Below are positions 1,111 to 19,318 of a stretch of 19,655 bases of DNA, one piece after another (position 1 is the first letter of the stretch; each line of letters opens with the position of its first letter). Source of the stretch: a virus (taxonomy: Duplodnaviria > Heunggongvirae > Uroviricota > Caudoviricetes); IMG/VR virus record IMGVR_UViG_3300029577_000167, positions 1 through 19,655 of that record. The stretch is one strand, 5' to 3'. The notes under the pieces are model-generated. The model was given only the letters and a program-made list of their open reading frames with translations, ran no database searches and was not told the DNA's origin. Position numbers and translations under genes: made by a program.

Positions 1111-2166
1111 CTATTTGCGAGCCTTTGCCTTGCGCAGCTCTTCGAGAATCGCCAGTTCTTCCTTGCTCAACATGACCATTTCCCCGTCTTTTTCTTCAGG
1201 GGCAACATCGATAATGTCCTCCGGATCATCACCTGGCAAGATATCTTCTGGCTCTTCAGGCGTAGCCATAGATGGCGGCAGTGCCGAACGTAACTTCGGC
1301 CGTCTATAGTGGATGACGAAGTAGACCGAGCTGCCGCGTTTCACTTCAGTGTAATCGAGATAGCCGATCTCTCGCAGCTGCTCCATCGCCTTCCTGACTG
1401 TCGCATTCTGGGTAATGGTGCGGCTGGTTAAGTTAAGTCTGGCGCGTAAGCGAGCCAATGAGATTGGCGCCGGGTCTGGTGGCAAACTTTCAATGAAGGT
1501 GTAGAGCGCCTGCGCGGATTCCTTTCTGGAGAGTTCGTTGATGGCCCGAAGTTGCAAAAGCACCTTTTTGTCGAACTGGTAAAGTTCGAAAATCTTAGGA
1601 TCGGCCTTCAGTTCGACCGTGTCATTCTTGGTACTGTACTTTGCCGTCTGCACAAGGTGCGTAACGTAATACTCTTCAGAGCCTTTGCTGCGGAATGAGA
1701 TGGTGTTTGTGGCGATACGACTTAGAGAGCTGTCCAGGCGCTTACGTAACTTCGCGGACGATCTGGCTGTTGGTATGCCACAAAGTCTGACGAACTCGAC
1801 GAACGGCAACGTGACGGTGTCACCAACAACCTTGTGCTTGGCGAACGCGTGGATGATGCCCACCCATGTTTTGAAATCGTTATCCATATCAAGACGAAGA
1901 CCAGCAATCCTTATATCCTCGTACCCTTCGGCTTTGGCCAGAGACAGCTGTTTGAGTTCAGCGGAGGCGTCCATAGAGACCATTTGCCCCTTTCTACCCC
2001 TGGATGTCGATTTCAGCGTCGGAACGAAGAGACCAAGACGCATCAGAGCAACAGGCTGAACTGTGTTGTTGGTGTTAGGAACTAACGTAACAACTTCGCC
2101 GGTCTTTTTGTCTGTTTCGGAAAATGCTTCGCTTATCGCAATGTTTTTATTGTCGTTTACGCTCAT
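1111..2166 (-). CDS. repA: plasmid replication initiator RepA, RepFIB type (351 aa)
   Basis: Motifs [111 protein letters not shown] match the RepFIB RepA of IncF plasmids as recalled; iterons flank the gene on both sides. Confidence 0.9.
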
Positions 2167-3949: not shown

Positions 3950-4228
3950 ATGACATTGCCATACGGGGTAATATCAGATCCCCATTATCATCGTTGGGAT
4001 GCTTTTGCGACAACAAACGCTGACGGGCTTAACTCTCGGCTGGAGATCCAACTGGACGCTACGAAGGAGGCGGCCAAAGCGATGAAAGCTGCTGGCTGTA
4101 AGCACATGCTGGTAGCTGGTGATACCTTCCATGTTCGCGGTGCTATATCACCTTCCGTTCTGCATTTCGTGACCGAAACTTACGAGTGGATCATCAAAGA
4201 GTTGGGTCTCAAGGTGGTAAGCTGGTGA
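3950..4228 (+). CDS. metallophosphoesterase N-terminal fragment (SbcD/Mre11-like), probably truncated
   Basis: Motif I GVISDPHYH and motif II LVAGDTFH resemble the calcineurin-like phosphoesterase / SbcD N-terminus (E. coli SbcD: TSDWHLG...IVAGDVFD); only 92 aa, whereas this family is about 400 aa. RBS AAAGGAAAAG upstream. Confidence 0.45.
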   Translation: MTLPYGVISDPHYHRWDAFATTNADGLNSRLEIQLDATKEAAKAMKAAGCKHMLVAGDTFHVRGAISPSVLHFVTETYEWIIKELGLKVVSW

Positions 4229-4262
4229 TACGAAAAAGCAAGTTCGCGTTAACAGTGACGAT

Positions 4263-4664
4263 ATGCGGCGGTTGAACGAGATTTGGCGTGGTATTAAGCC
4301 ACTGATTGACCAAGTTCATTTAGTGTTCTGTGAACTGCCAGTAGGCAGTCAATCTGCTAGAGCGATGGTTTCTTATGGTGGTTGTCTTGGCGTACTGGCG
4401 TGTGTGGATAAGCCACTGATACAGGTCACGCCAAACGAGATTAAGTACTATGTCGGGAATAAGCTGACTACGTCGAAAGAAGAGATCATTCAGTGGGCTA
4501 CGCAGAAGCAGCCAAACGCCCCGTGGTTGCGCCGGAAGCAATCGGGCAAGGAAGTGCTGGTGAATAAAAACGAGCACCTTGCGGACGCTGTCGCATCGAT
4601 TTACACCGGTATGCAAACTGATCAATTCCGTCAGGTTCGCGATGTTCTTGCTGGAATTTTATAA
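4263..4664 (+). CDS. RuvC-like Holliday junction resolvase, N-terminally truncated
   Basis: ELPVGSQSARAMVSYGGCLGVLA and C-terminal NEHLADAVASIY resemble the RuvC core and its catalytic-end motif (ADAADALAIA); the N-terminal GIDPGS-type motif with the first catalytic Asp is absent. Confidence 0.4.
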   Translation: MRRLNEIWRGIKPLIDQVHLVFCELPVGSQSARAMVSYGGCLGVLACVDKPLIQVTPNEIKYYVGNKLTTSKEEIIQWATQKQPNAPWLRRKQSGKEVLVNKNEHLADAVASIYTGMQTDQFRQVRDVLAGIL

Positions 4665-4702
4665 GTTGATAATTGATAGGTAAGTGCTTATCTATTACCA
4701 TG

Positions 4703-4730
4703 AGACCACTATATATAGTGGTCTTTTTAA
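4703..4730 (+). terminator. perfect 22-bp palindrome followed by T-run
   Basis: AGACCACTATA/TATAGTGGTCT (4703-4724) followed by TTTTT (4724-4728); lies 40 bp after the RuvC-like ORF stop. Confidence 0.5.
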
Positions 4731-4902
4731 TTGGGCTACACATAATAAGCATCGTAAAACGTAACGCCCACCGAGCCGCTGCCAGCTGCATGAAGCGCTG
4801 ACAAAGTTCGCTGTCGATTGCACTGGCCCGAGCCAGTTCGAATACCAAACCCACCAGCAATCCCGTACCAACTTCAAAACCCCCGTAGTCGAGTTCAATC
4901 CC

Positions 4903-5358
4903 CAGCTCAAAACCGTAAAAGTATTCAGTGATGGCTCCTGCCTCAAAAATCCGGGCGGGCCGGGCGGTTACGGCATCGTTCTCCAGTATCGAGGCGAAGA
5001 GCGCGAGCTTTCTGAGGGCTTCCACAGCACGACCAACAATCGGATGGAGATGATGGGCGCCCTGATTGCGCTGGAGCGTCTGAAGTACCCCTGCAACGTG
5101 ATCCTGCATTCCGACAGCCAGTATCTTAAAAACGGCATGACGCTCTGGATGAAAGGCTGGAAGCGTAACGGATGGATCACGTCTGAGAAGAAGCCAGTCA
5201 AAAACGTGGATCTCTGGAAACGTCTCGACGCGGCCGCCAGTCGTCATAATGTCCGCTGGAAGTGGGTTAAAGGCCATGCAGGTCATCGCGAGAACGAAAT
5301 GTGTGACCGTCTGGCGAAGATCGCCGCCTATTGTCGAGCGAGTCTCCGCTTTTGTTAA
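4903..5358 (+). CDS. rnhA: ribonuclease HI homologue; initiation codon unresolved
   Basis: ...[23 protein letters not shown]...[18 protein letters not shown]...HSDSQY...[16 protein letters not shown]...[20 protein letters not shown] aligns along the whole length with E. coli RNase HI as recalled. The frame is open from 4765, but no ATG/GTG/TTG exists in frame before 5044 (the codon at the position of the E. coli Met is CAG). Confidence 0.75.
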
Positions 5359-5603
5359 GTCCCCGCTGAATAATCCCCTCACCCGCGGTGAGCAGATGGA
5401 GCTGGCAAGGTGGTTTCTGCGTATCCATGAGCAGATGGAAGTTTTTAAACAGTTGCCGGATCTGCCCATTACAGACGGCCAAATTCAGTGTGCCACTTCA
5501 GTACGGTCGACGATGACAACGACGCAAACCTGCTTTTCGTCAAATCCGAAATCATAAAGTTGCGCAGGGAGAGAGAGAAATCGACGCAGAGCAGGCCCGC
5601 AAT

Positions 5604-5819
5604 ATGTGGGACGAGGCAGAAAACGCTGATGACGTAAAAGAAAGTTGCTGCTGTTTCGGTGTCGGTAACGAACTGCTGAGTCTGTTTGGTGACGATCCGT
5701 GGTATGCCGGTTGGCCAACGGTGCCAAACCCCAGATACCAATACCTGGAACGTATCATGAACGCGGTACGTAATGGGCTGAAAGAGCTTCACAATCAGAT
5801 GAGAGAAGCAATCGGTTAA
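5604..5819 (+). CDS. hypothetical small protein (71 aa)
   Basis: ORF with ATG start; no clear SD; contains a CCC triplet (SCCCFG). Confidence 0.35.
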   Translation: MWDEAENADDVKESCCCFGVGNELLSLFGDDPWYAGWPTVPNPRYQYLERIMNAVRNGLKELHNQMREAIG

Positions 5820-5857: not shown

Positions 5858-6556
5858 ATGAAAAATATCCTACTGGCATCATTGTTGGTGGCATCGCCGG
5901 CTGTATTTGCAGCCAGCTTTGACTGCCAAAAGGCTTCGGCAGAAATCGAACACAAAATCTGCGATAACGAACGCCTGTCAAAATTAGACGAACAACTTAG
6001 CTCTACCTATTCCAACGCACTCAAAGCAAACCCGGGGGACGCAGACGCCTTAAAGACGGTTCAGCGTCAATGGGTAAGTATGCGTGGAAAACTCACTGGT
6101 GATAAGACTCTGGAGTTGGCTTATCTAATCCAAATTAATGGCCTCAAGAGTTTGGATGGTTCGGCCAGCACTGCGGTGGTCAATGAGACACCAAAGCCTG
6201 TGCAGAAACAGCCTGAAGTTCAGGAAAAGACAAGCAAGGCAGACACAAAGCAGGCTGAGAGCGGTAAAAAGCTAACTCTGGAGTCATTCCGAGCTAAGTA
6301 TATTGAAGTTGACGGTGAATACTACAGCACGACATCCCTTCCCAGAGGGAGTTCGTTCTTGTTCACCTGCGCAAGTCGTATCGCAGATGACCAGGTGAAT
6401 ATTTGGAAGAAGGTGGCAGCCAAAGAGGGCAAGATCGATCTCTTCTTTGAACTTGAGAATCGAATACATACCGCAATGCTGAATGCCAATTTTCAGAAGC
6501 TAAATAGTGATTTAACTAAAACAGGCATTTGCGATCTGATTACTGCTGTTCCGTAA
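5858..6556 (+). CDS. secreted protein with LprI-like (DUF1311) domain
   Basis: Signal peptide MKNILLASLLVASPAVFA; FDCQKASAEIEHKICDNERLSKLDEQL...QRQW pattern typical of DUF1311 / lysozyme-inhibitor LprI N-terminal domain; GGAG 5 nt upstream of ATG at 5858 (ORF track starts at GTG 5852). Confidence 0.65.
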   Translation: MKNILLASLLVASPAVFAASFDCQKASAEIEHKICDNERLSKLDEQLSSTYSNALKANPGDADALKTVQRQWVSMRGKLTGDKTLELAYLIQINGLKSLDGSASTAVVNETPKPVQKQPEVQEKTSKADTKQAESGKKLTLESFRAKYIEVDGEYYSTTSLPRGSSFLFTCASRIADDQVNIWKKVAAKEGKIDLFFELENRIHTAMLNANFQKLNSDLTKTGICDLITAVP

Positions 6557-6564
6557 GCCAGATA

Positions 6565-6583
6565 AGGCCATTATTTGTGGCCT
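6565..6583. terminator. hairpin AGGCCA-ttatttg-TGGCCT, bidirectional terminator candidate
   Basis: Stem-loop between convergent genes 5858-6556 (+) and 6612-6815 (-); immediately followed by the palindrome TTAAACAATTTGTTTAA (6583-6599). Confidence 0.45.
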
Positions 6584-6611
6584 TAAACAATTTGTTTAAT
6601 TAGTGGTGTAA

Positions 6612-6815
6612 TTATTGGAATCCCAGGCGAACTAAATCCATTGGGCAGAACAGATCTTCCACACCTTCGATAGACACGCAGTCAGAGCGGCGTAATTGTT
6701 CTTCTGATTTGCCTTCTCCGCAGATTTCCTTGATGACTCCCGTTGCACCATTCGTTGCCACCATCACTCGGCTGCCGGTAGTGATAGTGTTACGGTTGCG
6801 ATCATAGGTCTTCAT
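6612..6815 (-). CDS. YdfZ-like small protein (67 aa)
   Basis: MKTYDRNRNTITTGSRVMV... resembles the E. coli YdfZ family as recalled; strong RBS AAAGGAGGAA upstream on the minus strand. Confidence 0.6.
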   Translation of the reverse strand: MKTYDRNRNTITTGSRVMVATNGATGVIKEICGEGKSEEQLRRSDCVSIEGVEDLFCPMDLVRLGFQ

Positions 6816-7002
6816 CGTTTCCTCCTTTCACATGGGTCAAATCAGGTTTCAAAAATTGCCGTTTTCCATGTAGGTGCGATTTGCAAAATCTCAAGCGCCA
6901 AAACAAATTGTTTTCACCATCTTGTTATTCAATTAACCCGTAAAGTTGACCAGTACCGTAATAAATACCACTGTTTATATGTGCAGTATTGCGAGGCGAG
7001 CA

Positions 7003-7269
7003 ATGGGCAGCAAGAATTCTAAATATGTGATCGTCTATAGGGGCGAAGCACTCAAGCACCTAATACCCGGACAGTTCGTTTTCTTCCAACGTGAAAAAGA
7101 ATACGGTGGGGGGTTCTGGCTTGGTAAAACGCATGAGGATGGGTTCGAATTTGTGCTGGAGCAACCCACTTCACTAAGTTACGGGCTTGCGTATCTGATC
7201 AGATTGTCGAGTGTCGAAGCCAGGTATATGGAGTTTGTTGATGACATAGACGACTTCAAACTCACCTAG
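7003..7269 (+). CDS. hypothetical protein (88 aa)
   Basis: ATG at 7003 preceded by GAGG; ORF track extends to 6946 without an RBS. Confidence 0.5.
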   Translation: MGSKNSKYVIVYRGEALKHLIPGQFVFFQREKEYGGGFWLGKTHEDGFEFVLEQPTSLSYGLAYLIRLSSVEARYMEFVDDIDDFKLT

Positions 7270-7310
7270 TCATCCCTTAAACATCTTGTTTTCTGCCTTT
7301 CGTTATTTGA

Positions 7311-7343
7311 GATAATAATACCAATAAGAAAACAAATTGTTTA
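7311..7343 (+). promoter_or_regulatory. conserved upstream cassette (type A), copy before gene 7355
   Basis: GATAATAATACCAATAAGAAAACAAATTGTTT, followed by AAGGAG and ATG at 7355. Confidence 0.55.
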
Positions 7344-7354
7344 AGGAGTTAATC

Positions 7355-7591
7355 ATGTTCGGAACCGCGAAAGAAATTATCGAAAAGCTGGAGAACTACC
7401 CAGAAGACGAGCCGCTGCTGATGGTGATGTGGCACAAGGAAGATGTAGGTGAAGGGCGACCAGACCTGACTGACGAACAGTGCGTTCAGGTTTTGCGAAA
7501 AATCAAAGAGTGCCATGATGCCAGCGTCGGCGTGAATTGGGATGTCATTTCTGACACGGCCAACATTCTGTTTCCAAAGGAGAAGGCATGA
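7355..7591 (+). CDS. hypothetical acidic protein (78 aa)
   Basis: AAGGAG RBS 6 nt upstream of ATG; stop overlaps the start of the next gene (ATGA). Confidence 0.6.
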   Translation: MFGTAKEIIEKLENYPEDEPLLMVMWHKEDVGEGRPDLTDEQCVQVLRKIKECHDASVGVNWDVISDTANILFPKEKA

Positions 7592-7908
7592 TGCTGAAAA
7601 TCACCGAATCGTATAAGACGGCGGTGATCAGCACCGCCCACGTCACGGCAGCGGATTCAGAACGGCTACCCATTGCCTGCTTCGACCCACTTACTGATCG
7701 CGGGTTGAATTGGGTACACGGTACACAGTATGGATGGATTGTTCGTGCTGGAATGCGAGGGAATGACTGGAAGGAAGAATTGCGTGATTACGGCATTTCC
7801 CAAGAGGCGATCTCTAACATACAGGCCATACGGGATGCCGGGTATGATTCGGTACAATTTGACTGTGATGCGGAGCTGGTGGATGGAATGCCAGCATGGG
7901 ATTGGTAG
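7588..7908 (+). CDS. hypothetical protein (106 aa), translationally coupled to upstream gene
   Basis: AAGGAGAAGG RBS; ATGA overlap with 7355-7591. Confidence 0.6.
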   Translation: MMLKITESYKTAVISTAHVTAADSERLPIACFDPLTDRGLNWVHGTQYGWIVRAGMRGNDWKEELRDYGISQEAISNIQAIRDAGYDSVQFDCDAELVDGMPAWDW

Positions 7909-7923
7909 ATATAACTACTAGCA

Positions 7924-8550
7924 ATGGCGGGAATAATTACCTGGAAAGTTGATATCATATACCCGCTTGTATTTCAAAATGGAATGGATGTAATGGAAAT
8001 CGATACTTTAGAAAAAAAATCAGTTAAAAACCTCTACGCGTGGCTTATAGCAATACTGCCGTTTGTTGTCAGCGTCCCCCCTGCTGAGTACGACAATTAC
8101 GTTATGGTGATTTCGTTCGTCATTGGGCTTGGACTGCTGGTCGCCGATCGCATGAATTTGACTGAGGCAGGCTATGAGCCACCATCATTCTTATGTGGGT
8201 TCTTTATCCCCCCTGTGTATCTCTGGAAACGAGCGACGGTTCTTGGAAGTAACCGACTGCTGTTTATCGTATGGATTGTTGCCTTTGCTGCATCATTTTT
8301 CGTGTATAGCTTCAACGCAGATTCAGCGCTTGAAGAAGCTGCTTGCCCTATAGTTACCACTATTCTGAAAGAAAATAACGGTTCAGAAGCATCTAAATGC
8401 ATGAAGGTAACAATTCAGGACAAAGTGACGGACAAGTTCTACAAAGCCACGGCTACACTGGATAACGGTAATGACATTAACATCACTATCGAAATGATCG
8501 GTGACGAGAATTTCTACGTTCGCGTGCCTAATTACTACCTAAACGACTAA
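7924..8550 (+). CDS. predicted membrane protein (about 3 TM segments; start uncertain, alternatives 7984/7993)
   Basis: Hydrophobic segments LYAWLIAILPFVVSV, VMVISFVIGLGLLVA, LLFIVWIVAFAASFFVY; soluble C-terminal region. Confidence 0.5.
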   Translation: MAGIITWKVDIIYPLVFQNGMDVMEIDTLEKKSVKNLYAWLIAILPFVVSVPPAEYDNYVMVISFVIGLGLLVADRMNLTEAGYEPPSFLCGFFIPPVYLWKRATVLGSNRLLFIVWIVAFAASFFVYSFNADSALEEAACPIVTTILKENNGSEASKCMKVTIQDKVTDKFYKATATLDNGNDINITIEMIGDENFYVRVPNYYLND

Positions 8551-8987
8551 CGGCTGCAACTCGTTGACATTGGCGGTCACAAATTGAGGATTTCTATAAG
8601 AGTCCGTTGATCGCCACTTCCCCCACCTCTCCAACCTACCCCAGCCCAGGGGTGACAAGGCATTTAAGCCAATTACACCCATAAGAAAACAAATAAATAA
8701 CACGTCAACGAAAAGTCAACGCTTTCCTCTGATTTGGTCTAAAAAGTTGACGTTTTCGCAAGCCATCTCTTATACCCAAAATCCTGCGCACCAGAATCCA
8801 TCTCCCTGCGACCAAAACGTCAAAAACGACTCGTGATATCACTCAAAAACAGAAGCGCTCAGAAGCGCTCCCGTTGCGTTATATTGGGCATCTAAACAAG
8901 TTGTTTTCAGGCATAAGAAAACAAGTTAACAACCCCCACAGGAAACCCAGAGACGCCATTACCCACAATCCCGGAAACACCCACCTC

Positions 8988-9073
8988 TTCCTGTCAGACT
9001 ACCGAAAAGACCCACCTCATTGCCCCAGGCTACAGACCACCCACCTAATATTCCCAGGCAACCGAGAACGCGG
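8988..9073 (+). repeat. three tandem 28-31-bp C/A-rich repeats (core CAGRCWACMGA...CCCACCT)
   Basis: Units 8988-9018, 9019-9046, 9047-9073; paralogous triplet at 12989-13074. Confidence 0.7.
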
Positions 9074-9646
9074 TTCGCACGCGCAAACCCCGATACGTCA
9101 TTACCCAATACACGGAGAAGAACAGCCAGAACGAAACCCCGGACAAACCCAGACAAGAACAGGAGCCGTCACAATCTCGTTTACCCACCATTACCCCGAA
9201 AGAGAGCGCAAATTCCTGAATAGCAGGGAACGCCATTACTTCATATGCGGAGAACAACTAAAGCGCCCTACTGCCATTACCCACACTTTCATCATTTCAC
9301 GTAAACGAAGAGAAAAGCGCACCTGCCATTACTCCATACACGGAGAAGAACACTCACCAAAACGACGAGAACAACCCAGACGAAAACACAGAGAAGAACC
9401 ACCTCAAGAAGAACGAAACCACATATGCCGGTAGAAAGAACAAACCACCCATTTCACCCAAAGGAATACTCGCCGTATAGAGCGTTATCAGAGGGAAGGT
9501 TTATGCCCACATAAGAGAGAAAATTCGTGGGAGGTATAAGTGGGAAGGGAAGGAGGGGTATCGCCACTTTTTCCGCATAAATTCAAGCCATAGTTTTCAT
9601 CCCCCGTAACGTCCCTTTCCACCCCTTCGGTCAGCCTTCGGGCCAT

Positions 9647-9825
9647 CCGGGAAAGCTATGTCCCTTTTCAGGAACGGGAGCGTCGCCGCAGGGAAAAGGC
9701 TTGAGGTTTTCAGGGAAACGGTGGGAATCCCGCTATACGAACCGGGGAAAGGCTGGCTGCCGGTCGGGAAACGGGTACATCCCGGTACAGAGTGAGGGAC
9801 GACTGCGGGAGCGGTGCGGGAAATC
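9647..9825 (+). repeat. GGGAAA(C/A)GG-type direct repeats, about 21-bp period
   Basis: CCGGGAAAGC 9647, CAGGAACGGG 9669, GCAGGGAAAAGG 9687, CAGGGAAACGG 9711, CGGGGAAAGG 9743, TCGGGAAACGGG 9763, GCGGGAAATC 9816. Confidence 0.65.
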
Positions 9826-10093
9826 TTCGGGAGTGCGCCTTACTCTTCACTCGCCTGAAAATCGCGGGGGAGTGTCATTCCCTCTCGTGCAGCTACTGGA
9901 CTCCATTCTGCCAGACCATCATTGGGTCTCAAGCTATTTCAGTAGGTTTTCGGGGAGAAGGATATTCTGCCCACCAGCCCCGTGGCGCGCGTAGAGCAGA
10001 ATATCGTAAATACTGGCTCCCGTGTCGTTCCCGGATATTCACTGCCCAGCCTGGCTTTCACGACATAAAATCCTTTTCCGCCTTTGTCTTATT

Positions 10094-10128
10094 GCGATAA
10101 TAACACCAACAAGTAAACAACATGTTTA
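10094..10128 (+). promoter_or_regulatory. conserved upstream cassette (type A) before gene 10160
   Basis: GCGATAATAACACCAACAAGTAAACAACATGTTTA; palindrome AAACAACATGTTT at 10115-10127. Confidence 0.55.
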
Positions 10129-10159
10129 GACGTTATATAAACGAAGTGAGGATGAAGAG

Positions 10160-10378
10160 ATGATTAAGATGCCTGTGACGGTTGAGGTGTGGGGCGTGGA
10201 TTCCCTGGCTGAGTGTCTGGATGCAGTGGGGCCGGAGTTGTACCGCAAGTTGTGGTCGTTCGTCCCGGCAGAAGGGGAATCGCCCAAAGGGAAGGATATC
10301 TGGCACCTGCTGAGTGAAGATGAAAAGCGGGAGCTGGTGGACGCGGTACACAGCGAGTTCCCGGGCGACGAAGATTAA
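10160..10378 (+). CDS. hypothetical small acidic protein (72 aa; 17 D/E vs 7 K/R)
   Basis: GAGG RBS 8 nt upstream; followed by hairpin terminator at 10385-10410. Confidence 0.6.
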   Translation: MIKMPVTVEVWGVDSLAECLDAVGPELYRKLWSFVPAEGESPKGKDIWHLLSEDEKRELVDAVHSEFPGDED

Positions 10379-10384
10379 GAGTGA

Positions 10385-10410
10385 GGCCACCAGCACGGTG
10401 GCTTTTGTCG
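10385..10410 (+). terminator. intrinsic terminator (GCCACC-agcac-GGTGGC + TTTTG)
   Basis: Hairpin and T-run immediately after the stop of 10160-10378. Confidence 0.6.
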
Positions 10411-10450
10411 CTATTAACCTCCGGGGCAGCGCAGCACCGTAACGATATAC

Positions 10451-10506
10451 TTTGTGGCCGTTTTCTTACTGGTATTGTTTACGCAATTCAGAAAACAACA
10501 TGTTTA
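10451..10506 (+). promoter_or_regulatory. conserved upstream cassette (type B, about 56 bp) before gene 10518
   Basis: TTTGTGGCCGTTTTCTTACTGGTATTGTTTACGCAATTCAGAAAACAACATGTTTA; near-identical to 10942-10997. Confidence 0.55.
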
Positions 10507-10517
10507 AGGATTGCGTT

Positions 10518-10847
10518 ATGTTTGCAAATATCGACATCAACCAAATCAAGAAAATGACTCAAAAAGAGTTTGACCAGTTTTATGAGTTAGAAGGTTGGTC
10601 TTCCACGCTGATCAATTCGCGCTGGGTGCTTGAGCTGATGACTCGTGATGATGCTCCTGCTTTGATTATTTGCGACCTGGGTGATGATGCTGACTTTATG
10701 GATATGAGCGAATTTTGTGTGGATACATACAACCGCAGCCAGAAGTACTACTTCACATGCGATAGCGAGAATGACGTGATTTCTAAGCTCTATCTTCACC
10801 TTGTCCAGCATTGGGACGTTCAGGAGTTCCTTGATGTATTCGCGTAA
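10518..10847 (+). CDS. hypothetical acidic protein (109 aa; 21 D/E vs 8 K/R)
   Basis: AAGGA RBS; ATG at 10518 (ORF track begins upstream at 10452, inside the cassette). Confidence 0.6.
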   Translation: MFANIDINQIKKMTQKEFDQFYELEGWSSTLINSRWVLELMTRDDAPALIICDLGDDADFMDMSEFCVDTYNRSQKYYFTCDSENDVISKLYLHLVQHWDVQEFLDVFA

Positions 10848-10941
10848 ACCCAACCAAAGCCAGCACCGCCTGCTGGCTTAACTTCTCTGTAGCCGCAGGG
10901 AAGAACCACCTTTAGATAATTCATGTGCCTGAGCAATATGC

Positions 10942-10997
10942 TTTGTAGCCGTTTTTACACTGGTATTATTTACGCCATTGAGAAAACAATTTGTTTA
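10942..10997 (+). promoter_or_regulatory. conserved upstream cassette (type B) before gene 11008
   Basis: TTTGTAGCCGTTTTTACACTGGTATTATTTACGCCATTGAGAAAACAATTTGTTTA. Confidence 0.55.
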
Positions 10998-11007
10998 CGG
11001 AGTGGTG

Positions 11008-11319
11008 ATGAATACTTCATTGGTGCTGGGTCTTGCTGAAGGTCAGGAGAGAAAAGAAAAACCAACCTTAATGGGGCATCTCACATTGCTGGATATCGTA
11101 GCGAATGGGACTTCTATCCGTCTGTTTCGTGAAAAAGCCATTACCTTCGACGCGGGCAATTTTACGCGCTATGTGATGGTAGTTCGTCGCCAGCGTGGAA
11201 GAGGGTGGATGTCGGTCCAGAAAATGTGGCCAGAGGACCAGCTTGAACTGGCGCTGATGGAAGCCAACCGTGTCGCCCAACAAGAGATCCAACGAGCGTC
11301 TGTTCAGGCGGTAGCTTAA
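11008..11319 (+). CDS. hypothetical protein (103 aa)
   Basis: GGAG 5 nt upstream of ATG 11008; terminator at 11354-11382. Confidence 0.55.
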   Translation: MNTSLVLGLAEGQERKEKPTLMGHLTLLDIVANGTSIRLFREKAITFDAGNFTRYVMVVRRQRGRGWMSVQKMWPEDQLELALMEANRVAQQEIQRASVQAVA

Positions 11320-11353
11320 ACATGTGCAAGCAGTAGTTAGTCGAATGTACGAC

Positions 11354-11382
11354 AGCCCCGCCAATCCTTCGGGGCTTTTTTG
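11354..11382 (+). terminator. intrinsic terminator (AGCCCC-gccaatccttc-GGGGCT + TTTTTT)
   Basis: GC-rich hairpin followed by a 6-T run. Confidence 0.7.
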
Positions 11383-11440
11383 TATTGTAAGTACTTACTT
11401 ATGATAATAAAATTAAAAATTAAACACTAAGGAGAGTGAA

Positions 11441-11836
11441 ATGACCGTTAAACGCGAAAATCTGACCCTGGATATGTATTATGCATCAGAGACGGAAAAT
11501 GGAGACAAAGTTGCAAAAATTACAATTGTGCTACGCGATAATGCCTCCGGCGAAGAAGTTCACACCAGTACCTTAACTCGCACCGGCGAGGCCACAAAGG
11601 GAAAATATTCGGTGCGTTACCAAAGCATCAGTAATGCTTCTGACCCTTTACTGATAAAACTGGAAACTCATTTCCGTGGCGCGGATCAGACGTTGTTTGA
11701 AAATTTGATGAAAAAGGTCGATGCGGTTTATACATCGAGTTTAAATACCAATAGTACCTGGATGGGACAACACGGTCTGCGAATAATCTCCGGCGAAAAG
11801 ATCGACACCATTGTCCCTGAAAGCGTATTCGCTTAA
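11441..11836 (+). CDS. hypothetical protein (131 aa)
   Basis: AAGGAGAG RBS; AT-rich leader containing the perfect palindrome GTAAGTACTTAC (11387-11398); terminator at 11847-11872. Confidence 0.6.
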   Translation: MTVKRENLTLDMYYASETENGDKVAKITIVLRDNASGEEVHTSTLTRTGEATKGKYSVRYQSISNASDPLLIKLETHFRGADQTLFENLMKKVDAVYTSSLNTNSTWMGQHGLRIISGEKIDTIVPESVFA

Positions 11837-11846
11837 TCCTCTTTGA

Positions 11847-11872
11847 ATGGCGCGTAAACCGCGCCATTTTCT
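11847..11872 (+). terminator. intrinsic terminator (ATGGCGCG-taaacc-GCGCCAT + TTTTCTT)
   Basis: Hairpin plus T-rich tail after stop at 11836. Confidence 0.65.
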
Positions 11873-11953
11873 TATTCCCGATAACAATTTGTTTTCTGCC
11901 TTATCTGATTTGTGAAAATGATTTCACTGAAGCAACTTAATAAGGATACCATC

Positions 11954-12328
11954 ATGGGACTTGATATCTATATCGAGACGCAGCCTAAAAACGATCTGAA
12001 TAACGAGGCATCCAGAAAGCAGGTTGCTTACTTCCGTAAGTTCAATGCGCTCGTTGGGTGGATGGAGCGCAACGTAGGTGAAGTCGAAAATTGTGAGCTT
12101 TTAGAATTAACGATGAATGACATTTGTTTTCTGAAGGCTCATTTGATGCACATAAACGAAAGTAATTGCGAAGTGTACTTACCTACCCGGGAAGGTTTTT
12201 TCTTCGGCAGTCAGGAGTACGATGAAGGTTACTGGCATGACGTGGATAAGCTGAAAAAACTTGTGGAAGACCTGATCAGGAACCACGACTTTCACAATAA
12301 CAGACTGACGTTCCGTGCCTGGTGGTAA
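11954..12328 (+). CDS. hypothetical protein (124 aa)
   Basis: AAGGA RBS before ATG 11954; shortened cassette copy (CGATAACAATTTGTTTTCTGCC) at 11871-11900. Confidence 0.55.
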   Translation: MGLDIYIETQPKNDLNNEASRKQVAYFRKFNALVGWMERNVGEVENCELLELTMNDICFLKAHLMHINESNCEVYLPTREGFFFGSQEYDEGYWHDVDKLKKLVEDLIRNHDFHNNRLTFRAWW

Positions 12329-12330
12329 AT

Positions 12331-12474
12331 ATGGGCGATTTCAAGAAACGCCTGAAGGAGAGAGCCGAGATGGTCAGAAAGCGAAACGCCTCTTCTGTCA
12401 TAAGATACGCAAGGCAGTTTAGTCGCAACAACAAATCAGTTGAGGAAAAGATCCTTAGCGTAATCGGGCGATAA
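12331..12474 (+). CDS. possible small basic protein (47 aa), starts 2 nt after the upstream stop
   Basis: MGDFKKRLKERAEMVRKRNASSVIRYARQFSRNNKSVEEKILSVIGR; below the ORF-track size cutoff; followed by hairpin 12481-12506. Confidence 0.3.
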   Translation: MGDFKKRLKERAEMVRKRNASSVIRYARQFSRNNKSVEEKILSVIGR

Positions 12475-12610
12475 TTATTAAGGCCACCAGCATTGGTGGT
12501 CTTAAATGACTTTTAATAACCGAAGGTTAGTTTGAAACCTGGCTATCAACTTCCAGAACCTTTCTTGTGTATTCAGCCTGTATTAACTTCTTTTATGCCT
12601 TATCTACACT

Positions 12611-12645
12611 GCGATAATTACACCAACAAGAAAACAATATGTTTA
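12611..12645 (+). promoter_or_regulatory. conserved upstream cassette (type A) before gene 12664
   Basis: GCGATAATTACACCAACAAGAAAACAATATGTTTA; palindrome at 12632-12644. Confidence 0.55.
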
Positions 12646-12663
12646 CGCAGTGAGGATATGCTC

Positions 12664-12945
12664 ATGACTGATTTCACCATTACCCCTAAAGCACAAAATG
12701 TATTCCTTGAATCATGGCTGGACTTGCCGGAAACAGAACAGCAAGAAATGGATCATGTGGAATATGACGAGCAGGTAAGCACGCGATTCTTCCACTTTGA
12801 GGGCTGCGTTTACGACATTGCCGACTTCATGCGAGATGACCGCTTCCCTGAATGGCACGCAAGCTATCCACTAAACGCCTTCGCCATGCTGATGATCCGT
12901 GTGGATGATTCAGGGGATACCATCGACATCGGTCTGCTCCACTAA
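12664..12945 (+). CDS. hypothetical small acidic protein (93 aa; 20 D/E vs 5 K/R)
   Basis: GAGG 8 nt upstream of ATG 12664; hairpin 12951-12977 after the stop. Confidence 0.6.
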   Translation: MTDFTITPKAQNVFLESWLDLPETEQQEMDHVEYDEQVSTRFFHFEGCVYDIADFMRDDRFPEWHASYPLNAFAMLMIRVDDSGDTIDIGLLH

Positions 12946-12988
12946 AGAGTAAGGCCACCAATGCTGGTGGCCTTAAATGACCATCCTG

Positions 12989-13074
12989 TTTCCCGCAGGC
13001 TAAAAACACCAACCTCTTACCTCCAGGCAACCGACAAACCCACCTGTTCCCGTCCGGCTACCGCAACTTTCCAC
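12989..13074 (+). repeat. three tandem about 29-bp C/A-rich repeats, paralogous to 8988-9073
   Basis: TTTCCCGCAGGCTAAAAACACCAACCTC / TTACCTCCAGGCAACCGACAAACCCACCTG / TTCCCGTCCGGCTACCGCAACTTTCCAC; CCAGGCAACCGA core matches 9055-9066 exactly (12/12). Confidence 0.7.
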
Positions 13075-13094
13075 TTTGACGCCTTATTCGTACA

Positions 13095-13130
13095 ACGATA
13101 ATTAACACCAACAAGAAAACAATTTGTTAT
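13095..13130 (+). promoter_or_regulatory. conserved upstream cassette (type A) before gene 13150
   Basis: CGATAATTAACACCAACAAGAAAACAATTTGTTAT; a possible -35 TTGACG at 13075-13080. Confidence 0.55.
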
Positions 13131-13149
13131 TTACGATAAGGAATTAATC

Positions 13150-13632
13150 ATGAATTTTATCGCTACTGTAAACGCACCCGCACATGGCAATATCGCTGTA
13201 ACGTTCTCTGATATTGAAAAACGAGTACTTGGTGCATGGCGCGACAATGAGACGGTAGAACTGTCAGCACAAGAAAAATGCATTATTGCACGCGACATCA
13301 TTTGCAAACGTCGTTACTCACGGGTAATTGAGAAAGCGTATGTCGCAAATTCTGGCTTCGGAACATTTGTCTTCCCGGTACGCTCCGGGCGATTCTGCCA
13401 GTCCAAGCTGATTGAGTTCGCTACGCAGATTTCTGTCTGGATTAAAACTCAATCGTCGTTCAAATTTTCCGACGATGAAGCAGTATCGCAGGGGATGCGG
13501 ATCGCCAACAATGCAATAAAATGCAAAAACATTACGTATGCCGCTGGCGTTGACACATGGAAACTGTTTTGCGCTAACTTTATGCTGAATGTATACGCAA
13601 GCAACCGCATCCACATCCTTGATGGCGTGTAA
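13150..13632 (+). CDS. hypothetical protein (160 aa)
   Basis: AAGGA RBS; hairpin GGGCC-agaaac-GGCCC + TTTCTCT at 13641-13662. Confidence 0.6.
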   Translation: MNFIATVNAPAHGNIAVTFSDIEKRVLGAWRDNETVELSAQEKCIIARDIICKRRYSRVIEKAYVANSGFGTFVFPVRSGRFCQSKLIEFATQISVWIKTQSSFKFSDDEAVSQGMRIANNAIKCKNITYAAGVDTWKLFCANFMLNVYASNRIHILDGV

Positions 13633-13677
13633 CTGAGAAGAGGGCCAGAAACGGCCCTTTCTCTATAGCCACCAGCT

Positions 13678-15510: not shown

Positions 15511-16038
15511 TTAAAACGGTAAAATCCGTTCGACCCAATCGAACATGGCGACTGTCTTCCTACCGTCCCCCATGTTGAGTGTGACCTGACAAGCGTCAAC
15601 GCCTGAAGACACCCCCTCAATTTCACGGCCATCCGCCATGTAGACCCTTATAGACTTCTGCATCTCATGGGCCTGGCGACAAATTTTGAAGAAATCACGG
15701 CGAGATGGCCGATTGTCCACATAGTCTGGGTGTATCGTTGTCCGACCCGTGAAGTCGTGTGCAATGCCTTCTGTCACACCTGATTCAATCGTGCTGATTC
15801 GCTCAAGTGGGAGCCTTATACGATTATCTTTGTCGAACGGGGCAGGGCAAAGGTCGACCTTGTTGCGTGACGACATGAGACCCTGAACATACATGCAGAA
15901 CACCTGACCATCTTCCATCGTGACCCTTACAGGAATAAGAGACTTGCGCCAGAACATCAGCGCTTTCTCCACGTTGGTGTAATCGCGCGGCCAGACTTCT
16001 GCAGGAATCCCGTAGGTGATGTCAGTAATATTCGTCAT
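15511..16038 (-). CDS. hypothetical protein (175 aa) with internal duplication of an RVxMxDG module
   Basis: Start ATG at 16038 lies 2 nt after the upstream stop (ORF track extends to 16080). PVRVTMEDGQVF...LERISTIE and SIRVYMADGREI...FDWVERI look like tandem copies. Confidence 0.5.
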   Translation of the reverse strand: MTNITDITYGIPAEVWPRDYTNVEKALMFWRKSLIPVRVTMEDGQVFCMYVQGLMSSRNKVDLCPAPFDKDNRIRLPLERISTIESGVTEGIAHDFTGRTTIHPDYVDNRPSRRDFFKICRQAHEMQKSIRVYMADGREIEGVSSGVDACQVTLNMGDGRKTVAMFDWVERILPF

Positions 16039-16042
16039 ATCG

Positions 16043-16465
16043 TCACAGTGTCGTTGGTAAGATATCGATGTCACCAGCATTACTGGTGAACACCCGGAAG
16101 ACTTTCGTCTCGCCAGCTTTGGTAATCGTCTCGCGTTCCTGACGAGCAGGATTCAGTGCGCACAGCCCAGCGTCTTCGAGTGAGGCGCCAACAATCCATT
16201 CTCCGGCATCCAGATGAAAAGTGACTTTTTCACCTGTTTCCAGTTTTGCAACGGTTTCGCCATTGATGAAGATCGATGCGTCGCAACCGGCGCCCACCAT
16301 GCTTTTATCTCTCATAACCACCAGCGTCGATGCCGCCGGAGATTGGTATTTGAATATTCTGGTCTGCGGTGCTGGCTTTGCCTCAGAGACAGGAATAGGA
16401 CGAGATTGACATGCAGTGATAAGTAACGCGGAGGCAGCAACCAGAGGAAGTAATACGTGTTTCAT
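16043..16465 (-). CDS. predicted lipoprotein (140 aa)
   Basis: MKHVLLPLVAASALLITAC: signal peptide with lipobox LITAC; ORF track start at 16501 is upstream of the likely Met. Confidence 0.6.
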   Translation of the reverse strand: MKHVLLPLVAASALLITACQSRPIPVSEAKPAPQTRIFKYQSPAASTLVVMRDKSMVGAGCDASIFINGETVAKLETGEKVTFHLDAGEWIVGASLEDAGLCALNPARQERETITKAGETKVFRVFTSNAGDIDILPTTL

Positions 16466-16524: not shown

Positions 16525-16803
16525 TCAATCGAGGCGTTTTAGAATATCGGCCAGATCTTCTTTGGTCATACCCGAGTTTTCGTAAATCTTCATGACCTTT
16601 TCACGAGCCTTTGCAGTAGTCTCTAATGACGTAGCTATCTTATCAAAATCACCCATCGTCATATTGGACAGCACCAGATTGATGATGTCTGCTTTTGACA
16701 GTTTTATGCTGCGTTCACGCAGTCGATTCTGAAAGGTCTCTAGTTTATCGTTTGCTTTTTCGGTTAACTTAACCTGGCAGTTAATAGCGCGTTTCTCGCT
16801 CAT
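16525..16803 (-). CDS. hypothetical small helical protein (92 aa)
   Basis: Starts 9 nt downstream of the helicase stop; charged helical composition. Confidence 0.5.
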   Translation of the reverse strand: MSEKRAINCQVKLTEKANDKLETFQNRLRERSIKLSKADIINLVLSNMTMGDFDKIATSLETTAKAREKVMKIYENSGMTKEDLADILKRLD

Positions 16804-18366: not shown

Positions 18367-18430
18367 AAACCTCTTTCCTTCGTGCCTTTTGTATGGTAAT
18401 TGGCTATTATGTTAAGTAAGTGCTTACACA

Positions 18431-19318
18431 ATGTATTGTATCAAAAATATGGATGTGAAAATTACGATTCTACAGGTGGAAGTCGCGAACCTGCGTCCGA
18501 ACCCCTGGAATACCAACTCCGTTGGGGCGCAAAACTTCGAAAAACTGAAAGGTTCCATCGAAAAGTTGGGCTTTTTTAAGCCAATTCTGGCGCGAGAGCT
18601 GGACGGCGGCATTTTTGAAATTCTCGGTGGCGAACATCGCTGGCGTGCCGCGATGGAGCAGGGCATTTCAACGGTTCCCGTCATCTCCGTGGGCAAAATT
18701 AACGACCTGGTGGCCAAACAGATGTCCCTCGTCGACAACGAGCGCTACGGCGAAGACGATCAGGTCGCTTTGCAGCGCTTAATCGAAGAAATCCAGTCTG
18801 AAATCGACTACCGGTTGTCCGATATCGCCCCGTATGACGACGAAATGGCGGCAACACTCGCCAAAGCATCCGTTATCGATCTTGAAGCGCTGGAAGCGCT
18901 CTCCCGTGGCGATGACGAGCCGGTCGATGAGGACAAACGCGAGAAAACCGAGCGAGTCGGCGCTGAACACCAGACGATGCGCTTCAAGGTGACGTTTGAT
19001 GCGTCAGATCGGGTCATCGAACAGAAGACTCTCGAAACCCATGAGGTCGTCGAGTTTGAGCTGTCGAGTGTGTTCGACCTGATGGGCGTGCAGCTGCCGT
19101 ACCGCCAGATCATCAAAAACACATGCCCGTGGAGATACCGCGGACCAGAGTGCGGCTACACCGGTCCGTACTTCGACAAAAACAACCAGCAAACCACCAT
19201 GTCAGGAGCGGATTGCTGCACGAAACGTTACGACTCATGCAACGCACGGCGCAACTACTTTGCCAATGGCGTAATCCACTTTGGCGGGTTCATTGGGGCA
19301 ACGCGTTATGGGCAATAG
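18431..19318 (+). CDS. ParB-like N-terminal domain protein with C-terminal lambda gpL-like cysteine module
   Basis: N-terminus LRPNPWNTN...ILARELDGGIFEILGGEHRWRAAMEQGISTVPVI...VDNERYGED fits the ParB/Srx fold (GxxRxxA); C-terminus NTCPWRYRGPECGYTGP...CCTKRYDSC...FGGF parallels the lambda minor tail protein L C-terminus (NTCTWTYRGDECGYSGP...CSKCLSGC...FGGF) as recalled. Start uncertain (18431 or 18449). Confidence 0.75.
   Translation: MYCIKNMDVKITILQVEVANLRPNPWNTNSVGAQNFEKLKGSIEKLGFFKPILARELDGGIFEILGGEHRWRAAMEQGISTVPVISVGKINDLVAKQMSLVDNERYGEDDQVALQRLIEEIQSEIDYRLSDIAPYDDEMAATLAKASVIDLEALEALSRGDDEPVDEDKREKTERVGAEHQTMRFKVTFDASDRVIEQKTLETHEVVEFELSSVFDLMGVQLPYRQIIKNTCPWRYRGPECGYTGPYFDKNNQQTTMSGADCCTKRYDSCNARRNYFANGVIHFGGFIGATRYGQ

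Follow-up and report, generated by a model that had tools for sequence, protein, structure and literature searches.

The window analysed in this study is a stretch of 19,655 nucleotides from a Caudoviricetes virus (IMG/VR record IMGVR_UViG_3300029577_000167), and it carries an array of small genes preceded by copies of a short palindrome, hereafter called the dyad. The 6400-13400 stretch matched 774 plasmid records from Klebsiella, Escherichia, Enterobacter, Yersinia and Salmonella, together with the phages SSU5, Cyrano, PhiR41_1 and CMS-2020a, and judged by these matches the window is part of an SSU5-type phage-plasmid. We know of no account of how SSU5-type phage-plasmids choose between plasmid life and lysis, and our full-text literature searches returned no description of the motif or of a plasmid/lysis switch in such elements.

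The dyad (AAACAANTTGTTT as a search string) was counted in the window on both strands with the pattern AAACAANNTGTTT, allowing at most one mismatch. Eleven sites were found, at 6585, 6901, 7279, 7330, 8894, 10115, 10493, 10984, 11882, 12632 and 13117. As the pattern is palindromic, they gave 22 strand matches against 0.85 expected, and none of 200 shuffled sequences reached 22. All 11 sites are intergenic and confined to 6585-13129. The palindrome reported by an earlier, sequence-only reading of this DNA is thus present far above chance. That reading listed seven full copies directly 5' of small open reading frames (ORFs), and each of the seven was indeed followed by an ORF with a Shine-Dalgarno sequence (starts at 7355, 10160, 10518, 11008, 11954, 12664 and 13150). 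The copy ending at 11895 differs from the others, since its dyad is in inverted sense and covers the -35 position, upstream of the -10. Among the copies called partial, those at 6585, 6901 and 8894 turned out to be complete dyads, and those at 8671-8700 and 8917-8931 are decayed, with the left arm only. An additional full dyad in the upstream placement was found at 7279-7291, so that two dyads, 51 bp from each other, stand before the gene at 7355.

Across 67 sites from four genomes the dyad was AAACAA-N-TTGTTT, 13 bp with 6-bp arms and a free centre base; its symmetry is tighter than first described. Its composition is 12/13 A+T. Position 6 was A in 62 of the 67 sites and position 8 was T in 56; both arms are nearly invariant and the flanks drift.

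To define the surrounding cassette, 140 distinct cassettes from the window, three complete relatives and IMG/VR loci were aligned, which gave the consensus cTTt...gCCttTt......tg.gATAAT-aAcaCcAa.aAGAAAACAA.TTGTTTA. A sigma-70 promoter-like sequence comes first and is separated by 13-14 nt from the dyad; behind the dyad follow a Shine-Dalgarno sequence, one or two small ORFs and a hairpin terminator. Of the promoter elements, the -35 is weak (TTGGAC, TTGACG, TTGTAG or TTTTCC), and the 15-17 nt spacer between -35 and -10 ends in TGn, forming an extended -10 whose hexamer is GATAAT in cassettes of type A and TATTRT in those of type B. The two subtypes had been proposed before and were recovered as separate repeat families (type A as D7, D8 and D11; type B as D16, with two 69-nt copies of 83% identity). 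The stretch between -10 and dyad is CA-rich, conserved and 13-14 nt long wherever a -10 is recognisable, and the distance from dyad to start codon varies from 8 to 59 nt. The dyad centre would lie at about +14 relative to the predicted transcription start. The cassettes were not called as promoters in a generic promoter scan of the window because their -35 elements are weak. That most of the genes end with their own hairpin terminator was confirmed, three hairpins being called by scan and four more being read by eye from the sequence (Table 1).

A second arrangement consists of (T/A)AACAAnnTGTTTTCTGCC, 19 nt, and TGnGAAAAT or GATAAT. Here the dyad would lie about 38 bp upstream of the predicted start, over the -35 position, as at 7279 and 11882 in the window and at 85602, 88319 and 93662 in SSU5. 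Promoters with two dyads had the dyad centres 51 bp apart in all genomes examined (window 7279/7330; SSU5 88319/88370 and 93662/93713; Cyrano 93114/93165; Klebsiella phage ST13-OXA48phi12.3 47327/47378).

The dyad is not a property of the array alone; it is a whole-genome motif of SSU5-type elements. SSU5 and Cyrano have 18-22 intergenic dyad sites each (18 of 19 sites are intergenic in Cyrano). Genes with a dyad in front of them in SSU5, Cyrano and the Klebsiella phage include terS (two sites, 25 bp apart), parA, cobT, nrdB and the gene for the dnaB-like helicase, and further ant or tciA, many small ORFs and a DUF4942 gene annotated in SSU5 as a DNA methyltransferase. The motif is conserved across elements from Escherichia, Salmonella and Klebsiella. 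With an 84-nt cassette query, 461 matches were obtained in 234 genomes out of the 5,426 complete E. coli genomes searched; every match lay on a plasmid of ~95-130 kb and none on a chromosome, so at the level of the cassette this is not a generic host site. An exact-pattern scan of IMG/VR gave many single chance matches, and only the contigs of ~100-145 kb with multiple matches look family-like. A second dyad considered at 18416, in the divergent promoter of a helicase and a ParB-like gene, was rejected as not conserved in relatives.

Homology between the window and its relatives is interrupted at the cassettes. For Cyrano the match stops at 10128 and starts again at 10490, that is at the dyads 10115 and 10493, which both read AAACAACATGTTTA, and one gene and one promoter are present or absent exactly between these two identical dyads. 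The SSU5 match ends or starts at 10130, 10139, 10520, 10937 and 11905, and the Klebsiella match breaks at 6901, 10131 and 10520; the breakpoints with these two phages lie at +7 to +21 or -47 to -65 from dyads. In the window, SSU5 and Cyrano, three ORFs unrelated to one another stand behind the same type-A cassette, and the loci sampled have 13 protein families behind cassettes, which bears out the suggestion that homologous cassettes carry different genes in relatives. The only minus-strand gene of the array, ydfZ, lies between two dyads and its module appears, from its orientation and flanks, to have been inverted between them; this module is missing from the Klebsiella phage, with the junction on the dyad. 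Deletion and inversion between dyad copies are expected because the palindrome is its own inverted repeat. At 6598-6616 (-) a type-A -10 with its initial transcribed part points away from any gene.

The expression of genes behind dyads was taken from published RNA sequencing of an LF82 lysogen of Cyrano, a phage induced by ciprofloxacin. Normalised reads were 5.7-25.5 for genes directly behind a dyad, the median of the phage being 9.8 (PMC9928086 S1 Table), and the sole exception among dyad-bearing operons was the parA operon, with 50-89 reads (~50 for parA itself; PMC9928086). These low reads therefore hint that in the plasmid state the promoter-like sequences are not on constitutively, although their extended -10 is close to consensus.

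The dyad had been described as positioned like an operator or a 5'-untranslated region (5'-UTR) hairpin, and of these two the operator is supported and the hairpin disfavoured. Arms of 6 bp around one base cannot close a hairpin, and the dyad alone folds at 0 to -0.7 kcal/mol (best stem 5 bp), no better than shuffles. Covariation over 55 distinct sites gave no pair with compensatory change; of 25 departures from the dyad, 23 break a pair, and two, both C-to-U, turn it into G-U. The would-be loop bases, positions 6 and 8, are conserved as complementary A and T. An Rfam search of the window, the region 8560-10060 included, gave no match, and so the marks of a structured 5'-UTR (compensatory pairs, an adequate loop, folding energy, an Rfam family) are lacking. 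Geometry, folding energy and the absence of covariation were the grounds for rejecting an RNA hairpin. From these properties, from the register with the -10 and from the copies upstream of the predicted start, we favour a double-stranded DNA site for a symmetric protein over an RNA hairpin.

The reading that we prefer, and hold to be moderately probable, is that the dyad is the operator for an element-encoded repressor at the sigma-70 promoters of self-contained modules, which are also crossover points. Control of the whole set by one regulator, as suggested before, is still the best reading, since the dyad behaves like an operator common to many promoters. Each unit would be a self-contained expression module in which a host sigma-70 promoter and the dyad precede the Shine-Dalgarno sequence of one or two small ORFs, with a terminator at the end. 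The element would encode a symmetric and probably dimeric repressor, which would bind the double-stranded dyad and, sitting at +14 or ~38 bp upstream of the start, block RNA polymerase. Because 51 bp correspond to about five helical turns, the paired sites would face the same side of the helix, and cooperative binding would be possible. As the same operator stands before ~20 transcription units genome-wide, one protein could keep the phage programme and the accessory genes silent during plasmid life and derepress all of them together. The cassettes may at the same time serve as crossover points, because they form 40-70 bp identity islands between unrelated genes, so that modules would be deleted, inserted, swapped and apparently inverted.

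Several points weigh against this reading. Transcription starts, protein binding, repression and the identity of the binder are what we infer rather than observe. The lysogen data are weakly specific, most Cyrano genes being at background with or without a dyad. The dyads of the dnaB-like helicase gene, nrdB and parA, which lie outside the window, have no -10 at the canonical distance, and therefore the +14 scheme does not fit every dyad. A search by tblastn with C1, Coi and Lpa of phage P1 gave only E > 0.9 in the window, SSU5, Cyrano, the Klebsiella phage and the plasmid pRHB27-C18_3, and P1-type control was rejected for want of a homologue in these five related sequences. For the 92-amino-acid (aa) protein considered as a ribbon-helix-helix regulator (Table 1), no DNA-binding fold could be demonstrated; its homologue CYRAN_117 is expressed in the lysogen (114 reads). 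Finally, both type-B leaders of the window (10472-10513 and 10964-11005) form stems of 7-9 bp that enclose the dyad and pair the Shine-Dalgarno sequence, at -11.8 and -10.6 kcal/mol (z -4.3 and -3.2). The two differ by one A-U to C-G change, and the stem was present in only about half of 12 type-B variants from relatives; these stems leave room for a layer of control at the RNA level.

That the dyad is instead a site of positive or temporal control or of a host factor, at which promoters are switched on, e.g. by an early phage protein or an enterobacterial DNA-binding protein, seems unlikely to us. The weak -35 elements would suit an activator, and the upstream site, ~38 bp before the predicted start, is near the position of class II activators. 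The motif is common to elements of Escherichia, Salmonella and Klebsiella, which a shared host factor could explain, and silence in the lysogen fits an absent activator equally well. The commonest position, however, is ~+14, inside the footprint of RNA polymerase, where repressors and not activators bind, lac O1 lying at +11; a TGn extended -10 with GATAAT should need no activator; and the cassette was on none of the E. coli chromosomes searched. We know of no host regulator with this dyad consensus, the sites of KdgR, LacI-family proteins, TyrR and IHF differing in spacing or sequence.

The cassettes could also be mere mobile promoter or recombination modules, in which the dyad is kept as a crossover or inversion point or as a hitch-hiker, with no dedicated regulator; we give this little credence. 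The breakpoints on cassettes and the ydfZ module, apparently inverted between dyads here and missing in the Klebsiella relative with its junction on the dyad, are what it would predict. The element is annotated with a T4-like set of recombination genes (UvsW, UvsY, a gp32-like single-stranded DNA-binding protein, RecA, SbcCD and RuvC), and the promoter-early stem-loops (PeSLs) of T4 show that promoter cassettes are able to drive shuffling (PMC2839356). Recombination at repeats needs no palindrome, though, and it leaves unexplained the near-invariant arms beside drifting flanks, the fixed 13-14 nt and 51-bp phasing, and the dyads at stable core genes (terS, parA, cobT and nrdB) in three genera.

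A third possibility, that the dyad acts in mRNA as a 5'-UTR element by the Shine-Dalgarno sequence, bound or folding, to control translation or stability, is in our view improbable: most dyads do fall within the predicted leader, immediately ahead of the Shine-Dalgarno sequence, both type-B leaders of the window do fold over it, and the window does encode a candidate RNA-binding regulator, a full-length FljA homologue at 15511-16080 (-) (Pfam Flag1_repress, E 1.9e-95; PHROG 'transcriptional repressor'), but the arms cannot close a hairpin, the would-be loop positions are complementary, compensatory changes are absent, the dyad keeps its register with the -10 and not with the start codon, copies over the -35 would escape transcription, the type-B stems are missing from about half of the variants, and the E. 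coli K-12 fliC leader, a natural target of FljA, has no AAACAA-N-TTGTTT. FljA is the repressor of phase-1 flagellin, and its homologue is conserved in SSU5, Cyrano and the Klebsiella relative; the phage-plasmid might use it to shut off host flagellin. FljA acts post-transcriptionally, on fliC mRNA, by blocking translation (PMC2652032). As the binder of the dyad the homologue was rejected, the fliC leader being without a dyad.

If the dyad is a repressor operator, the small partner of ParA (SSU5_034 / CYRAN_29, encoded outside the window) would be the most interesting candidate binder: of all operons with a dyad, that of parA alone is expressed in the lysogen, and SSU5, Cyrano and pRHB27-C18_3 all conserve the dyad in front of it. 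A dyad together with expression in the lysogen is the pattern to be expected of an autoregulated repressor operon. The partner had no Pfam match; Pfam searches of the ParA partner, CYRAN_123, CYRAN_37, SSU5_116 and CYRAN_45 gave nothing past threshold apart from weak helix-turn-helix matches, and CYRAN_45 and SSU5_116 are absent from the window. The ParB-domain genes CYRAN_119 and CYRAN_120 are silent in the Cyrano lysogen (5-9.5 reads). It is doubtful, but conceivable, that the small partner of this type Ib ParA reads the ~20 dyads both as partition sites and as a master off-switch of the phage. If true, a KorB-like partition-and-silencing network would have taken over lysis-lysogeny control, with the same sites serving as joints for the exchange of accessory genes.

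Among known systems, the C1 regulon of P1 is the closest in function to the proposed regulon, and in evolutionary behaviour the cassettes resemble the PeSLs of T4. P1 is a phage-plasmid with 22 dispersed C1 operators, whose consensus is 17 bp and asymmetric, ATTGCTCTAATAAATTT (PMC8546580). The two have in common one short operator dispersed before replication, late-control and accessory genes, single as well as paired sites (P1 record) and overlap of the operators with sigma-70 promoters. They differ in the operator itself, asymmetric in P1 and a 13-bp perfect dyad here, and in that no C1-family repressor homologue was found in the window or the four relatives searched.

In T4-type phages, junctions of insertions, deletions and replacements lie on PeSL cassettes (PMC2839356, PMC4122927). 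Similar here are the short repeated cassettes directly upstream of small ORFans, the sigma-70-type promoter before a small ORF with Shine-Dalgarno sequence and ATG (with a weak -35 in our case), the combination of terminator and sigma-70 promoter, e.g. at 11845-11919, and the indel and replacement junctions on cassettes between relatives (Cyrano, SSU5, Klebsiella). The PeSL stem-loop, in contrast, is stable, G+C-rich, often polyG/polyC and terminating, whereas the dyad is A+T-rich without a stable fold and the terminator hairpins are separate, variably placed elements. PeSL promoters have the full sigma-70 consensus, whereas the present cassettes rely on TGn and -10; and PeSLs belong to the hyperplastic regions of T4-like myoviruses, whereas here a temperate siphovirus-type phage-plasmid has the dyad at core genes as well. 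The likeness to PeSLs drawn by the sequence-only reading thus holds for behaviour (composite cassettes before ORFans, mosaic junctions) and fails for membership, as the dyad lacks a stable G+C-rich stem-loop.

In plasmid RK2 (IncP) the KorB/KorA proteins use a dispersed 13-bp palindromic operator to silence many promoters, and the regulator operon is autoregulated; the sequence of the KorB operator is TTTAGCSGCTAAA, and its effect is often exerted over a distance. The 13-bp palindrome dispersed around the plasmid would be a parallel, as would a parA operon that carries the dyad and is the only such operon expressed in the lysogen. Unlike KorB operators, the present sites are at fixed positions inside promoters, and the ParB-domain genes are silent in the lysogen. 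The lac system has a symmetric repressor and an auxiliary upstream operator on the same helix face. As at lac O1, the dyad is centred just downstream of the predicted start with an upstream auxiliary site on the same face; the geometry alone is comparable, the operator sequences being unrelated and the start in our case predicted.

SSU5-type phage-plasmids are common in clinical and farm Enterobacteriaceae, and a single operator so clearly defined, standing at almost all early, replication and packaging promoters, would offer a handle on the choice between plasmid and lysis. The dyad regulon makes the SSU5 lysis-lysogeny switch directly testable, and the dyad can be used as bait to find the repressor, to map the regulon and to recognise members of the family in sequence data. 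Cassette-mediated shuffling, so far known from lytic T4-type phages, would be extended to a temperate phage-plasmid and would help to explain the turnover of accessory genes in SSU5-type elements.

Table 1. Dyads, cassettes and associated features of the window (SD, Shine-Dalgarno sequence; hairpins marked s were called by scan, those marked e were read by eye)
Feature	Position	Strand	Elements	Genes and hairpin	Repeat family
Terminator hairpin abutting dyad 6585-6597 (basis: sequence reading)	6560-6584				
Cargo-less type-A cassette half	6585..6616	-	AATAAT 6611-6616, 13 nt, dyad 6585-6597		
ydfZ module	6598..6900	-	dyad on each side, as if inverted	ydfZ 6612-6815	
Dyad in divergent ydfZ / 7003-7269 intergenic region	6901..6913	.	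at -35 position for ydfZ		
Upstream dyad of 7355 promoter	7279..7291	+	over -35, inverted sense (..TTGTTTTCTGCC)		D15
Type-A cassette	7308..7354	+	TG 7308-7309, GATAAT 7311-7316, 13 nt, dyad 7330-7342, SD AAGGAG 7343-7348	7355-7591 (DUF1380), then 7588-7908 (DUF5983)	
Decayed cassette, left arm only (AAGAAAACAAATAAATAAC)	8671..8700	+			D4, D11
Full dyad and decayed copy, at edge of conserved 1.5-kb ORF-free region	8894..8931	+	dyad 8894-8906, decayed copy 8917-8931		D4
Type-A cassette	10073..10159	+	-35-like 10073-10079, TG 10093-10094, GATAAT 10096-10101, 13 nt, dyad 10115-10127, SD	10160-10378; hairpin 10386-10406 (e)	D7
Type-B cassette	10451..10517	+	TTGTGG 10452-10457, TG 10470-10471, TATTGT 10473-10478, 14 nt, dyad 10493-10505, SD 10506-10510	10518-10847; hairpin 10858-10879 (e)	D16
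Type-B cassette	10942..11007	+	TG 10961-10962, TATTAT 10964-10969, 14 nt, dyad 10984-10996, SD GGAG 10999-11002	11008-11319; hairpin 11355-11381 (e)	D16
Terminator/dyad/promoter composite	11845..11953	+	hairpin 11845-11869 (s), dyad 11882-11894 over -35, TG 11911-11912, GAAAAT 11914-11919, SD 11942-11946	11954-12328, 12331-12474; hairpin 12478-12505 (s)	D15
Type-A cassette	12590..12663	+	TG 12610-12611, GATAAT 12613-12618, 13 nt, dyad 12632-12644, SD 12652-12656	12664-12945; hairpin 12950-12975 (s)	D7
Type-A cassette	13075..13149	+	TTGACG 13076-13081, GATAAT 13097-13102, 14 nt, dyad 13117-13129 (right arm TTGTTA), SD 13139-13143	13150-13632; hairpin 13642-13665 (e)	D8, D9
92-aa protein, candidate regulator only	16525..16803	-		family-restricted; homologue CYRAN_117	

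The terminator hairpins form a repeat family of their own (AAGGCCAC...GTGGCCTT), with members at 6560-6584, 12478-12505, 12950-12975 and also 10386-10406, and some of them directly abut a dyad, giving a terminator/operator/promoter composite. The ORF at 12331-12474 (+), which encodes a very basic protein of 47 aa, follows 11954-12328 directly and is itself followed by a strong terminator. Reads in the lysogen were 58 for its Cyrano homologue CYRAN_109 and 5.7 for the gene upstream, which suggests an own promoter or a small RNA in this region.

Alignment of the whole window to relatives was piecewise only and ended at 19015, and the 52-kb remnant plasmid pRHB27-C18_3 was among the closest records, so by these alignments this copy is a deletion derivative of an SSU5-like phage-plasmid. 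At 3950-5800 there are short ORFs where relatives have full-length genes, e.g. for a metallophosphoesterase, a sign of large deletions, and the long ORF 4498-5469 (-) is probably spurious. The match of the relatives stops within the ParB-domain ORF 18431-19318. We take the C-terminal part of this ORF (CPWRYRGPECGY) to resemble the lambda-type tail protein L.

The left part of the window carries a Rep_3-family initiator gene at 1111-2166 (-) with iterons on either side, about 20 of the form ACTCACTACAGTGGATA in both orientations at 500-1110 and 2190-2715; the replicon of close relatives is typed IncFIB in PLSDB. The region at 8560-10060, 1.5 kb without a convincing ORF, has 93.6% identity to SSU5 against ~85% for the flanking genes. 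Repeats in it are four copies of GCCATTAC (8955-9325) and four of CCCACCT (8622-9040); it also has GGGAAA repeats in a G+C-rich part (9689-9743), one full dyad and two decayed dyads, and could be a second, perhaps lytic, origin or a non-coding RNA.

Outside the window, the highest-expressed gene of the Cyrano lysogen was CYRAN_43 (Cyrano 40268-40822, -), which encodes a hypothetical protein and had ~7,000 reads against the median of 9.8; it is neighboured by an integrase and an XRE-type repressor on an island that is absent from SSU5.

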